Positions 2,792 through 6,709 of a stretch of DNA of 7,350 nt are shown here, one piece after another. The notes under the pieces were generated by a model, which worked only from the letters and a program-made list of their open reading frames with translations, made no database searches and had not been told where the DNA came from. Source of the DNA: Escherichia coli (lineage in GTDB: Bacteria; Pseudomonadota; Gammaproteobacteria; Enterobacterales; Enterobacteriaceae); assembly GCF_003334385.1 (NCBI RefSeq), contig NZ_QOWN01000072.1; one strand, given 5' to 3'. The translations under genes were made by a program, and so were the position numbers. Positions within the stretch are counted from its first letter, which is position 1. Every line of letters begins with the position of its first letter.

Positions 2792-3292
2792 TTAGGCGCG
2801 ACGACCTTTTTGCGCCTCTAGCCACCGCGCAACGGTTTCTTCAATTGATTCTTTTTTCTCCTTCATTTCCTTAAGCATTTTCTCTTTGTCTTCTTTTGGG
2901 AAAGCCCTGAACGTCTGGATCAAATCTCGCTCTATAGGTTCTATATTAAACGGAAGTTCGTTTTCCGATTGTTCCATCTCTGCGGGTAAAGCGACAACAT
3001 TATCCTGCTGCAGTTCTTGGGGGTACATCCTTACAATTCGTAACAAGTCTGCCATATCTGGTCTAATTGACTCAGGCGGAACTTGTAGCAACCCAGCGAA
3101 CTTGATAACAGCCTCTAGATTTAAAGGTGTCTGACCATTTAGATAATGGCTTACTGCCCCTTGTGTCGAAAAACCCAGAATTTCTGCCGCACGCTCTTGG
3201 GTTAACCCAAGTTGAGTTTTTTTCGTCGTCCAGATTTCTTTCAGTCTCTGGGCGGCTTGCAGGTCGATCTCTGACAGGGGTTTTCTTTTCAT
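2792..3292 (-). CDS. paaR: HTH (XRE/Cro-CI family) transcriptional repressor, 166 aa; candidate prophage immunity repressor and regulator of the toxin-antitoxin operon (PaaR/RacR-like)
   Basis: ORF track 2792..3292 (-). N-terminal HTH LGLTQERAAEILGFSTQGAVSHYLNG. No LexA/S24 peptidase-like C-terminus. Divergent from the ydaS/ydaT pair across an operator-containing spacer. Stop lies 17 nt before the antitoxin start. Confidence 0.85.
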   Translation of the reverse strand: MKRKPLSEIDLQAAQRLKEIWTTKKTQLGLTQERAAEILGFSTQGAVSHYLNGQTPLNLEAVIKFAGLLQVPPESIRPDMADLLRIVRMYPQELQQDNVVALPAEMEQSENELPFNIEPIERDLIQTFRAFPKEDKEKMLKEMKEKKESIEETVARWLEAQKGRRA

Positions 3293-3399: not shown

Positions 3400-3663
3400 A
3401 TGAATCTTGGAGAATATTTGCATCATTCCCGTATAACCCAGAAAGATTTTGCTGAAATTGTTGGGGTAACCCAAGGGATGGTAAGCCATGTTATTACTGG
3501 ACGGGCGAAACTTACGGGGGGGAAAGTTTTACGCTGGTGTGAAGCAACAGGGTGGGTAGTGACCCCGCACGAGATTGATAGCAGTACTTACCCCAACCCA
3601 ACCGATGGCATACCTGTTGACTATCAGGCTAACACACAACCCACGCTGGGAGTTGATTCATGA
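3400..3663 (+). CDS. ydaS: Cro-like HTH protein YdaS (87 aa)
   Basis: ORF track 3400..3663. Motif GVTQGMVSHVITGRAKLTGGKVLRWCEATGWVV matches YdaS/Cro-like proteins paired with YdaT in Rac-type prophages. GAGGTG SD at 3390-3395. Stop overlaps the ydaT start (ATGA). Confidence 0.8.
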   Translation: MNLGEYLHHSRITQKDFAEIVGVTQGMVSHVITGRAKLTGGKVLRWCEATGWVVTPHEIDSSTYPNPTDGIPVDYQANTQPTLGVDS

Positions 3664-4085
3664 AAATCAAGCATGAACACATCCGCATGGCGATGAATGT
3701 CTGGGCGCATCCGGACGGCGAAAAAGTACCGGCTGCGAAAATTACCAAAGCGTATTTCGAGCTGGGAATGACGTTCCCGGAACTGTATGACGACAGCCAT
3801 CCGGAAGCCCTGGCCCGTAATACCCAGAAAATTTTCCGCTGGGTGGAGAAGGACACCCCTGATGCTGTTGAAAAAATTCAGGCGCTGTTACCGGCGATCG
3901 AAAAGGCGATGCCGCCTTTGCTGGTGGCCCGTATGCGCAGTCACAGTTCTGAATATTACCGGGAGATCGTCGAACGACGGGATCGGCTGGTGAAAGATGT
4001 GGATGATTTTGTCGCAGCGGCGATCGCCTGGGGCACCCTGACTAACAGTGGTGGTCAGCCTGGTAATGCTGTTGTTGTGCATTGA
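3660..4085 (+). CDS. ydaT: YdaT-family protein (141 aa), the toxic / CII-equivalent partner of YdaS
   Basis: ORF track 3660..4085. Starts MKIKHEHI and is 141 aa, matching my recollection of E. coli Rac YdaT. GGGAG SD 8 nt upstream. A Chi octamer GCTGGTGG lies at 3920-3927. Confidence 0.85.
   Translation: MKIKHEHIRMAMNVWAHPDGEKVPAAKITKAYFELGMTFPELYDDSHPEALARNTQKIFRWVEKDTPDAVEKIQALLPAIEKAMPPLLVARMRSHSSEYYREIVERRDRLVKDVDDFVAAAIAWGTLTNSGGQPGNAVVVH
3920..3927 (+). other. Chi octamer GCTGGTGG (single copy, inside ydaT)
   Basis: Exact plus-strand match to 5'-GCTGGTGG-3' at 3920-3927. No reverse-complement copy was found in the window. Confidence 0.5.
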
Positions 4086-4153
4086 CCAACAATATTTATA
4101 CCGGATTTCTTCCGGAAGTTCGTGGGTAAAGTTCGGTATCAGAAGAGGTGAGT

Positions 4154-5191
4154 ATGGCTAATGCCTGGCTCAGATTGTGGCATGACATGCCAAATGACCC
4201 CAAGTGGCGAACGATTGCCAGGGTATCAGGACAGCCAATCGCAACAGTGATGGCAGTGTATATCCACCTTCTGGTGAGCGCGTCACGAAATGTCACGACA
4301 TGTCACGGCGTGTCACTACGTGGTCACATTGATGTCACGACGGAAGATTTAGCAAGTGCGCTTGATGTGACGGAAGACGTAATTGATTCAATTTTGCATG
4401 CAATGCAGGGGCGGGTTCTGGATGGTGACCTTATTTCCGGATGGGAAAAACGTCAGGTGCTGAAAGAGGACAATGGTAACGTTTCGCAAACGGCAAAATC
4501 CCCGGCAGAGCGCAAGAGAGCGCAGCGGGAGCGCGAAAAGCTGCGGAAATATGATGCTGATTGTCACGATGAGTCACGACGTGTCACGCATCTGTCACGA
4601 CAAGTCACGACAGATAAAGATACAGATACAGAATTAAACCCCACACATAACGCGCGCATGCGCGAGAGTGCTCCAACCGGTGAGTCGCATGGTGCGCCGT
4701 TGCAGACAGCCGAACCTGAATACCTGGACGGCCTGAGCGAACCGATCGGGAAATTTTCGATGACTACTGTCTGGCAGCCGTCGTCGGATTTTCGACAACG
4801 GGCAGCAGTGTGGGGTATGGCTCTGCCTGAGCCGGAATTTACACCTGCTGAGCTTGCCGCATTCCGGGATTACTGGATGGCGGAGGGGAAGGTTTTCACG
4901 CAGGTTCAGTGGGAGCAGAAATTTGCCCGCCACGTGCAGCACGTCAGGGCACAGGTAAAACCAGTCAGCAAGGGGGTAAGCCATGCAGCATCAGGTGGCA
5001 CGGCATCACGGGCAGTTCAGGAAATCCGGGCAGCACGCGAACAGTGGGAACGTGACAACGGATTTATCAGCAACGGAAACGGCCTGGAAGCTGTGGGAGC
5101 TTATGGGGGAGGTGTATTCGAACCGCTGGACACAGAAGAACGGGGCCGCACCTTCGAAGCTCTGGATTGCCCAGATTGGCGCGATGACTGA
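4154..5191 (+). CDS. replication initiator, lambda-O-like: replisome-organizer N-terminal domain, internal iteron-encoding segments, C-terminal region resembling a DnaT-like domain (345 aa)
   Basis: ORF track 4148..5191; preferred start is ATG 4154 with GAGGTG SD at 4145-4150. N-terminus WLRLWHDMPNDPKWRTIA is typical of phage replisome organizers. C-terminal TVWQPSSDFRQRAAVWGMALPEPEFTPAELAAFRDYWMAEG looks DnaT-like (from memory). Two iteron arrays lie inside the gene. Confidence 0.85.
   Translation: MANAWLRLWHDMPNDPKWRTIARVSGQPIATVMAVYIHLLVSASRNVTTCHGVSLRGHIDVTTEDLASALDVTEDVIDSILHAMQGRVLDGDLISGWEKRQVLKEDNGNVSQTAKSPAERKRAQREREKLRKYDADCHDESRRVTHLSRQVTTDKDTDTELNPTHNARMRESAPTGESHGAPLQTAEPEYLDGLSEPIGKFSMTTVWQPSSDFRQRAAVWGMALPEPEFTPAELAAFRDYWMAEGKVFTQVQWEQKFARHVQHVRAQVKPVSKGVSHAASGGTASRAVQEIRAAREQWERDNGFISNGNGLEAVGAYGGGVFEPLDTEERGRTFEALDCPDWRDD
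4281..4342 (+). repeat. iteron array 1: six direct repeats of a TGTCACGAC-like unit at 10-11 bp spacing
   Basis: GTCAC cores at 4282, 4292, 4302, 4312, 4323 and 4334. A degenerate GTGAC copy follows at 4367-4371. The array encodes SRNVTTCHGVSLRGHIDVTT within the initiator. Confidence 0.6.
4561..4640 (+). repeat. iteron array 2 (five TGTCACGAC-like repeats) with adjacent A/T-rich GATACA repeats; candidate origin core
   Basis: GTCAC cores at 4563, 4573, 4583, 4594 and 4604, followed by gataaagatacagatacagaattaaacc (4613-4640). Layout parallels lambda ori (iterons plus an A/T-rich region inside the O gene). Confidence 0.6.
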
Positions 5192-5645
5192 ACAGCAAAT
5201 CCGGCTGGTCTGCCGTCAGTGCATGGACCGCTGCCGGGCGGGTGAAACGTGGCCCCCAGACCTGGCTGAGTTTGTTGCACTGATTTCGGAGAGTGGGGCA
5301 AATCCATTTGGTCTTACGGTGGATGCAGTGATGGAAGAGTACCGGCGCTGGCGCAATGAATCCTGGCGATACGACGGGAGTGATAAATACCCGTGGCCAC
5401 AGCCTGTGCTGTACCACATCTGCCTCGAAATGCGTACCAGAGGGATTGAGCGCCAGATGACGCAGGGTGAGTTAAAACGACTTGCGGAACGGCAACTGAC
5501 GAAATGGGCAAAGCATGTTGGTAACGGGATGAGTGTTCCGCCAGTGCGACGACAACTGGAAGGGGCGAAACACCCGCAAGGGCCAACGCCAATTGAACGG
5601 CTGAAACAGGAATACGAACGCCGGAAGGCAGCTGGTTTTATTTGA
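4983..5645 (+). CDS. replication protein, lambda-P-like helicase loader (220 aa as drawn; start uncertain)
   Basis: ORF track 4983..5645. Segments WPPDLAEFVALISE, KYPWPQPVLYHI, ELKRLAERQL and SVPPVRRQLE align with lambda P as I remember it. ATG 4983 has the best SD (AGGGGG, 6 nt) but overlaps the O-like gene by 209 nt. Alternative starts are ATG 5103 (weak SD) and ATG 5184 (ATGACTGA overlap with the O stop). Confidence 0.75.
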   Translation: MQHQVARHHGQFRKSGQHANSGNVTTDLSATETAWKLWELMGEVYSNRWTQKNGAAPSKLWIAQIGAMTEQQIRLVCRQCMDRCRAGETWPPDLAEFVALISESGANPFGLTVDAVMEEYRRWRNESWRYDGSDKYPWPQPVLYHICLEMRTRGIERQMTQGELKRLAERQLTKWAKHVGNGMSVPPVRRQLEGAKHPQGPTPIERLKQEYERRKAAGFI

Positions 5646-5678
5646 GTCTGAGAAACGATTTTGTCGGAGGAAATTTTA

Positions 5679-6395
5679 ATGGAAACCGTATTTGACGCAC
5701 TGAAAGCACTGAAAAGAGCCTCTTCACAGGTAGTGGCGGCCCGCCTTGGAATCAGCCGTGAAGATGCGGTCAACGAACTGTGGAAACTGAAGCGCCGCGG
5801 TGAAGCGGATAACAAGGGTTCGATGTGGTGGCTGATTCAGGCTGGTGAAAGTGAACCGGTGTCACCGGTACCGAAAGTGACAGCGCAAATGCTGACTGAG
5901 GCGATTGAACAACATGGCCCACAAACGGCGGATGAGCTGGCACTGATGTTCGGGATTACCTCCCGCCGGGCGAATTCATCGCTGGCCATGGCAATCAGCA
6001 AAGGGCGTCTGATTCGCGTGAATCAGGGTGGTAAATTTCGTTACTGCATACCGGGCGCTGATTTACCGGCAGAGCCGGAAGCTGCATCCGTAGCGGAAAC
6101 CGATGGTAAAGCCTTTCCTCAGCCAGCAGGTGTTGCGTTACCAGTACAGGAAATGATGGCACAGGAAGAAATGAAAACAGAAATCGTGGAAGACATTGTG
6201 AGGTTACAGCCATCGATCACCGAAATGAAAGCAGATGACCTGATTCTACCATCGCTGCATGTGGCTAACCGCGAGCTGCGCCGGGCGAAAAGTGATGTCC
6301 AGAAGTGGGAGCGAGTCTGTGCTGCGCTGCGGGAACTGAACAAACACAGGGATATTCTCCGGGATATTACCGCCACCAGAGAGCAGCAGCGGTGA
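5679..6395 (+). CDS. hypothetical protein with two tandem winged-helix-like segments (238 aa); possibly DUF1627-type prophage protein
   Basis: ORF track 5661..6395; preferred start ATG 5679 with GGAGG at 5666-5670 (8-nt spacing), since the track start is a TTG. Two repeats of a wHTH-like pattern (residues about 1-55 and 75-130) and a charged coiled C-terminus. DUF1627 assignment is from memory. Confidence 0.7.
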
Positions 6396-6709
6396 GTGGC
6401 TGGAAGAAGTGGCGCTGGGCTGAAATCCTGATACTCCGGCAGTGTGCGGGAACGATGAGAGTCGAAAGCATCGGTTATCTGATTGGTCGTAGTGAGTCAG
6501 CCGTCAGGACGAAAGCGCGGGAACTGGGTATCAGCATGATTTTACGGGGTGATTTTCACCCGTCGGCAAAATATTCACAGCGTGATATTGAGCTGGCGCG
6601 GCAACTGCATCAGCGTGGCGTACCCCGACGGGAAATTGCCGAAAAGTTTGGGATGAAGTTGGGCGCAGTGAATAACTACGTTTATTTCGACAGGAGGGTT
6701 CAGGAGTGA
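6392..6709 (+). CDS. small putative HTH DNA-binding protein (about 105 aa; start uncertain)
   Basis: Part of ORF track 6305..6709. GTG 6392 overlaps the upstream stop (GTGA); ATG 6455 is the alternative. HTH-like segments [21 protein letters not shown] and [20 protein letters not shown]. No family recognised. Confidence 0.55.

Follow-up and report, generated by a model that had tools for sequence, protein, structure and literature searches.

In phage lambda, the initiator gene O, which carries iterons within its coding sequence, is followed on the same strand by gene P, which encodes a helicase loader of family PF06992, and the two genes overlap by 4 nucleotides (nt) at an ATGA junction. The C-terminus of lambda O contacts the N-terminal part of P, as described in the older hybrid-phage literature. 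Here, we analyze a 7,350-nt stretch of Escherichia coli DNA (contig NZ_QOWN01000072.1 of assembly GCF_003334385.1; the window), which corresponds to the early-right part of a lambdoid (Rac/PPompW-like) prophage and contains a replication initiator gene and a lambda-P-like helicase loader gene that share a long stretch of sequence. As in lambda, the initiator gene is followed directly by the PF06992 loader gene on the same strand, and the loader is collinear with lambda P in length (220 versus 233 amino acids, aa) and predicted domain order; putative iterons lie within the initiator gene. The differences lie in the initiator, where a DnaT-type domain and a long tail replace the C-terminal domain of O, and in the junction, where the two open reading frames (ORFs) overlap out of frame by 209 nt, whereas the overlap is 4 nt between lambda O and P and 17 nt where lambda-type P genes accompany O-type initiators.

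The overlapping genes of phiX174 and the Rz/Rz1 pair of lambda are the classic same-strand, out-of-frame overlaps of phages. The locus described here resembles them in that one stretch of DNA is open in two frames, with lowered variation and with predicted disorder in the partner under less constraint, but it differs in being a terminal overlap of two partner replication proteins rather than an embedded gene, and in that, taken over its full length, neither reading has the look of a recent invention. In a Pantoea brenneri prophage (L050), a DnaT-domain initiator is likewise followed directly by a PF06992 loader; however, that initiator lacks the tail of about 70 residues and has a lambda-O-like NNTDWI motif at its end, and a lambda-type loader follows across a 4-nt ATGA junction, indicating that the long overlap belongs to one subfamily and not to the pairing of DnaT-type initiators with P as such. 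DopC/DopE, a domesticated lambda-like helicase matchmaker pair, already provides a precedent for the pairing of a DnaT-motif initiator and a P-like loader, as it consists of an O-like protein with a DnaT C-terminal motif and a PF06992 P-like protein (Brezellec et al. 2017, PMC5509034). This pair differs from the prophage pair in being chromosomal and domesticated, with no iterons found (PMC5509034); our comparison is with the text of that paper, in which the word "overlap" has 0 occurrences.

In the window, the initiator gene occupies 4148 to 5191 on the plus strand (347 aa as the listed ORF, with a TGA stop at 5189-5191), and the loader gene, with its proposed start at ATG 4983, occupies 4983 to 5645 on the same strand (220 aa). 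The loader frame is +1 relative to the initiator frame, and the shared 209 nt lie at 4983-5191, exactly as an original prediction made from the sequence of the window had placed them. The P-like frame is open from position 4980, and its first ATG (4983) is followed by in-frame ATG codons at 5103-5105 (Met41 of the 220-aa form) and at 5184 (Met68), the last of which forms, together with the initiator stop, the sequence ATGACTGA at 5184-5191 on the plus strand. The original prediction weighed a true 209-nt shared stretch against an internal loader start and against a frameshifted initiator tail. The first of these options is the best supported, and we put the probability that the loader gene starts at ATG 4983, so that the overlap is a genuine, conserved dual-coding stretch, at about 0.78. 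This assessment is based on the ORFs, their conservation, the pattern of selection and predicted folds, from which we infer that cells initiate the loader at 4983 and produce both proteins.

In the mechanism that we propose, bases 4983-5191 would be read twice, once for the final 69 residues of the initiator and once for the initial 67-69 of the loader. The loader gene would be entered by ribosomes at a strong Shine-Dalgarno (SD) site, AAGGGGGT (4970-4977), written into a variable linker of the initiator. Between 4983 and 5057, constraint would fall on a tail helix of the initiator, with the loader N-terminus forming a tolerant, predicted disordered "lasso," and from about 5058 onward it would fall on the first folded helices of the loader, opposite an initiator tail that is predicted to be disordered.

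The SD site AAGGGGGT lies on the plus strand 5 nt upstream of ATG 4983, in the initiator linker codons Lys-Gly-Val, and its pairing with the anti-SD sequence (-11.8 kcal/mol) is the strongest of any position in the initiator gene. ATG 4983 thus has by far the best SD of the three candidates, as originally predicted, with values of -6.5 kcal/mol for ATG 5103 and -1.5 kcal/mol for ATG 5184; no local RNA structure masking the SD of ATG 4983 was found (z = +0.62). Two GTG codons were also considered as loader starts and rejected: GTG 4995 has no SD (-0.4 kcal/mol), and neither does GTG 5052 (-3.4 kcal/mol), where the residue is also unconserved in the alignment of homologs.

The start region was compared across diverged loci, for which modules from Brenneria, Salmonella and Enterobacter were collected by exact-protein look-ups and a one-genome-per-species scan added 27 loci; a search with the C-terminal half of the initiator returned mostly partial proteins and added few diverged tails. 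The set analyzed in detail consists of 20 loci with a DnaT-domain initiator and a P identity of 46-96%, drawn from Escherichia, Salmonella, Citrobacter, Klebsiella, Enterobacter, Pluralibacter, Phytobacter, Kluyvera, Pectobacterium, Brenneria, Prodigiosinella, Erwinia, Samsonia and Limnobaculum. An upstream ATG, 32-42 codons before the Met41 equivalent, is present in all 20 loci, and in 19 of them GGAGGT, GAGGT or GGGGG stands a few bases before it. Mean anti-SD pairing is -9.0 kcal/mol at this ATG versus -5.6 kcal/mol at Met41, with a background of -2.6 kcal/mol. In 20/20 loci the P frame is open from the upstream ATG and lies +1 relative to the initiator, with overlap lengths of 149-224 nt and the initiator stop 53-113 nt 3' of the Met41 equivalent (89-113 nt in 18 loci). 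Read in the initiator frame, the upstream ATG is always xAT|Gxx and the SD always [K/R/G]-Gly, so that the bases from SD to ATG encode [K/R/G]-G-x-x-[H/N/Y/D]-[A/V/E], the sole fixed positions of an otherwise variable linker. Both frames and their +1 relation are kept in these 20 loci as well as in 17 close homologs, and motifs are conserved in both frames. The layout is conserved among enterobacterial prophages and ancient.

The weight of the open frame by itself is modest at any single locus. Upstream of the overlap, the +1 frame of the initiator contains 4.3 stops per 100 codons, which makes a stop-free run of 67 codons unlikely, though this by itself does not settle the matter. When the initiator is resampled synonymously, the 40 codons between Met1 and Met41 stay open in 30-90% of trials per locus; this test is weak for any single locus and only its product over lineages is informative, at about 1e-6 if the 20 loci were independent, which they are only in part.

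In the P alignment, which includes homologs down to 51% identity, strong conservation sets in at the motif AW..W..MGEIYSNRW (residues 35-49 of the 220-aa form), while residues 1-34 are variable and contain indels; the stretches MQHQVARHHGQFRK and SGQHANSGNVTTDLSATETAWK fall within residues 1-40. Met41 is nearly invariant and Met68 is often Leu. Two codons before Met41, a TGG (Trp) codon is invariant in all 20 diverged loci, and variation in the overlying initiator residues is confined to xTG|Gxx. The bases that follow often form no SD, and the pattern is better read as constraint on the Trp than as a start signal for Met41. Over segment B of the overlap (5058-5191), identity among the 20 loci is 53% in the P frame versus 32% in the initiator frame.

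These patterns bear directly on the gene model used in RefSeq, in which the loader would be translated from 5184 by stop-start coupling at ATGACTGA as a 153-aa protein and the open frame upstream would be fortuitous. This start is annotated in all 14 RefSeq genomes that we inspected and in two phage records, and its 8-nt overlap recalls the 4-nt ATGA junction of lambda. However, Met68 is replaced by Leu (CTG or TTG) in 7/20 diverged loci and ATG 5184 has no SD, and the 27 codons immediately upstream form the most conserved P-frame stretch of the region, with 12 P-synonymous variants to 1 initiator-synonymous variant. In addition, the Pfam match begins already at residue 58, and the helices predicted at residues 26-66, corresponding to roughly the first half of lambda P domain II, would be deleted. 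The homolog alignment thus does not place the P start at or after 5184, and we regard this model as very improbable and the corresponding option of the original prediction as effectively refuted.

Selection within the shared stretch was assessed by classing single-base variants in the 17 close homologs (85-99.6% identity) according to their effect in each frame. In the initiator-only region (4700-4982), 60 variants are synonymous for the initiator, 17 are synonymous for P, 42 are nonsynonymous in both frames and 2 are synonymous in both, and the first part of the overlap (4986-5057) follows the same pattern, with 9, 2, 4 and 0 variants, respectively. Between 5058 and 5183 the pattern is reversed, with 3 initiator-synonymous and 18 P-synonymous variants and 0 in either of the other classes (Fisher's exact test against the initiator-only region, p = 1.5e-7), similar to the P-only region (5192-5642), where the counts are 11, 106, 38 and 3. 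The switch from initiator-like to P-like selection thus occurs at about nt 5058, upstream of both internal ATG codons, and it is already visible in the stretch upstream of Met41 (5058-5102; 6 P-synonymous versus 2 initiator-synonymous variants, p = 0.004). Overall, the overlap shows 0.18 variants per base, compared with 0.38 in its flanks (p = 7.5e-8).

The predicted structures divide the overlap at the same place. An AlphaFold2 (AF2) model of the loader, built on an alignment of 35 sequences, has a mean predicted local distance difference test (pLDDT) score of 79.5; residues 1-25 are of low confidence and predicted to be disordered. Met41 lies within the helix that follows (26-45; block pLDDT about 87), and further helices are predicted at 47-53, 59-66 and 70-85. 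For the initiator, AF2 predicts a confident DnaT domain, then a weak helix at about 285-303 (RAVQEIRAAREQW) and then a disordered acidic end. Segment A (4983-5057, plus strand) thereby combines the weakly predicted initiator tail helix with the predicted disordered loader N-terminus (residues 1-25), and segment B (5058-5191, plus strand) combines the first confident loader helices (residues 26-67) with initiator residues 304-347, an acidic end predicted to be disordered. The ordered element of each protein overlies a predicted disordered element of its partner, an arrangement that matches the switch in selection at about nt 5058.

The best Foldseek match of the loader model in the PDB is full-length lambda P (9oa1_Z; 218 columns, E = 7e-6, template modeling [TM] score of 0.47). 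Lambda P has a disordered N-terminal lasso (residues 1-29) and a compact domain II (about 30-119) that spirals on DnaB (PMC12661323). With the domain limits of that study, the model suggests that the loader has the same order of N-terminal lasso, domain II, domain III and C-terminal lasso. By this comparison, a start at 5184 would lose about half of the domain equivalent to domain II, and a start at 5103 would cut its first helix.

The second of these positions deserves separate consideration, since a loader starting at Met41 (ATG 5103; 180 aa) would leave an overlap of 89 nt, and this start could be used alone or beside 4983 for a short isoform. Besides the near invariance of Met41, this option is favored by many database entries of about 180 aa from Salmonella, Citrobacter, Klebsiella and Brenneria that begin there, including a Brenneria gene call with exactly an 89-nt overlap, by an SD-like TGGGAG 3 nt upstream (-6.5 kcal/mol) and by the lack of visible P-frame selection in codons 2-25 of the 220-aa form. 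On the other hand, the spacing of the weak TGGGAG site is too short and a core SD accompanies Met41 in only 8/20 diverged loci, the P-synonymous bias already covers 5058-5102, both the AW..W motif and the invariant Trp codon precede Met41, and Met41 falls in the middle of a confidently predicted helix. Moreover, a start at 5103 leaves the ATG in 20/20 loci and the SD in 19/20 at the first Met unexplained. We consider a start at 5103, alone or for a second isoform, unlikely, although it is the main rival to ATG 4983.

Several observations nevertheless weigh against a start at ATG 4983. The Prokaryotic Genome Annotation Pipeline (PGAP) and several depositors annotate 153-aa or approximately 180-aa forms, and Met41 is nearly invariant and preceded by the SD-like TGGGAG in some loci. 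Loader codons 2-25 show no purifying selection in the P frame (2 P-synonymous versus 9 initiator-synonymous variants), and the case for their translation rests on the conserved ATG, the SD and the open frame, of which the open frame is not rare at any one locus (0.30-0.90 by synonymous resampling). Finally, confident sequence homology to lambda P begins only at about residue 76.

This last point also concerns the original prediction, in which homology to lambda P appeared to start upstream of the initiator stop. Direct alignments with lambda P (BLASTP and hhalign) are confident only from residues 76-85 (nt 5208-5235), 3' of the initiator stop, with the N-terminal columns at confidence 0-3, so that the basis originally given for upstream homology is weak. 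Family profiles, which like the fold comparison are collinear with lambda P, do extend further upstream: Pfam PF06992 matches loader residues 58-187 (from nt 5154; E = 1.7e-15; model positions 31-161 of 162), and PHROG 109 ("P-like helicase loader") matches residues 14-220 of the 220-aa form (E = 1e-62), with a score of 213 bits for this form versus 185 bits for the 153-aa form (+28 bits). With a family profile, lambda P in the PDB is matched at E = 6e-6, and no NCBIfam model matched the P-like protein in any form. On the strength of these profile matches, we assign the protein to the lambda P-type helicase loaders, with the binding of host DnaB and its delivery to the initiator-origin complex as the predicted function.

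The initiator, for its part, matches PHROG 1408 and 3729 ("replication initiation protein"), with E values down to 1e-119 among PHROG initiation families, and contains a DnaT-type domain (PF17948, E = 9e-17) at residues 203-269 (nt 4754-4954). The NCBIfam model for DnaT (NF002770) scores 94.6 bits with a cutoff of 201, indicating that the initiator is not DnaT itself. By these matches it belongs to a family of lambda O analogues with a DnaT-type domain, for which origin binding is predicted. The part encoded within the overlap is the C-terminal tail (residues 279-347), in which the motifs TASRAVQxIRAAR ... EPLDxEERG ... DxxDW/R.DD recur in the 20 diverged and 17 close loci.

This recurrence is what decides against the idea that the last 70 or so residues of the initiator are a frameshift or sequencing artefact, with the true end near 4983 or a fusion into the P frame. 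In support of an artefact, PHROG 15931 (482 positions) matches both ORFs, as if some of its members were fusions, and the overlap of a Leclercia locus carries a frameshift. Yet the frame relation, the stop position and the tail motifs recur in frame across genera, segment A evolves in an initiator-synonymous manner, and the fused database proteins that we inspected are deletions or assembly chimeras. The frameshifted tail of the original prediction is thereby refuted, and we find this explanation hardly credible. A fusion or programmed frameshift was likewise set aside as an account of the locus: each of the inspected fused proteins is either an internal deletion or a chimera that takes in the DUF1627 gene downstream, and no search for slippery sites was made.

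With respect to the two cases just mentioned, PHROG 15931 matches the initiator at its positions 1-347 and the P ORF at 279-482; alongside initiators, this family seems to include fusions of initiator and loader or gene calls with a frameshift. In the Leclercia adecarboxylata NCTC13032 locus (L036, 1441-1692), the frameshift within the overlap makes the P frame continue as the initiator tail (...VMGGNILEPVDAEEWGRTFGALDSPDRFDD) and cuts the initiator reading short, which looks like a decayed prophage or pseudogene or a homopolymer sequencing error.

We made several further observations on the initiator gene. Its end, LDCPDWRDD (window 5160-5188), resembles the end of lambda O (LDLTNTDWIYGVDL; L022) and that of the Pantoea initiator (LDFNNTDWIHSI); the Trp of this motif is often Arg in the initiator family, owing to a substitution that leaves the P-frame residue unchanged, and the likeness may thus be coincidental. 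The start of the initiator is ambiguous between the listed GTG 4148 (-3.0 kcal/mol) and ATG 4154, which is preceded by the SD GAGGTGAGT (-7.1 kcal/mol) and is probably the true start; PGAP uses starts other than these, such as the equivalent of TTG 4175 (338 aa) in the 99.6%-identical genome of E. coli C7. Within the gene lie two clusters of GTCACG(A/G)C repeats phased at 10 nt, one of about five copies at 4282-4341 and one of about six at 4553-4619, the latter including a 12-nt inverted pair (4590-4615) and being followed by the A/T-rich GATAAAGATACAGATACAGAATTAAA at 4613-4638. The clusters look like putative origin iterons, placed as the lambda origin is placed inside O.

Copies of the region, ranging from near-identical to 85% identical, are found in 1261 of the 5426 complete E. 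coli genomes; prophages of O157:H7 are among those that carry it. In 14/14 RefSeq E. coli genomes inspected, PGAP annotates "replication protein P" from the 5184 equivalent, as a 153-aa protein with an 8-nt overlap; two phage records use the same start and one starts even later. Protein databases list the P-like family at about 220, about 180, 153 and 140 aa, lengths that reflect different choices of start. Full-text literature searches turned up no description of the initiator/loader overlap.

The remainder of the window has the gene order of a lambdoid early region, as judged from the ORF list and PHROG matches, with a repressor gene on the minus strand (2792-3292) followed by a Cro-like gene (3400-3663) and a CII/YdaT-like gene (3660-4085). 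Between the repressor gene and the upstream region, two small minus-strand ORFs at 2293-2583 (96 aa) and 2583-2774 (63 aa) abut with a 1-nt overlap and match PHROGs 2455 and 3936, whose function is unknown; their layout resembles that of a toxin-antitoxin pair. The next gene after the loader encodes a DUF1627 protein and is listed from a TTG codon (5661-6395); its ATG 5679, with a GGAGG site (-9.5 kcal/mol), is the PGAP start in homologs. An ORF listed from GTG 6305 (6305-6709) shares 91 nt with the end of the DUF1627 gene, but its PHROG match begins only at residue 33, which makes an internal start, with little or no overlap, likely. This pair stands in contrast to the conserved overlap of initiator and loader.

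The overlap of these two genes is a new example of a known phenomenon, the overlap of genes, combined with a widespread misannotation of a start codon. If the 220-aa form is real, the 153-aa "replication protein P" of RefSeq would lack 67 N-terminal residues, including helices predicted to lie in the equivalent of lambda P domain II, and this truncation would mislead structural, functional and pangenome work on prophage replication. The locus would then also offer a clean, deeply conserved case from bacterial viruses of a long out-of-frame overlap in which constraint is handed over midway, and it would be useful for testing gene finders and models of how overlapping genes evolve, as well as offering a tractable system for asking whether an overlap enforces the co-inheritance or co-expression of partners. 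A further suggestion, tentative and in our view rather unlikely to be correct, is that the approximately 200 shared bases encode mutual recognition surfaces, namely, the C-terminal tail of the initiator and the N-terminal lasso and beginning of domain II of the loader. It is drawn from the O-P contact of lambda, from the tail-less Pantoea initiator, which accompanies a lambda-type P without a long overlap, and from the layout of ordered over disordered elements. Should it hold, partner specificity would reside in one indivisible DNA cassette, whose two readings would coevolve and be exchanged as a unit among mosaic lambdoid prophages.

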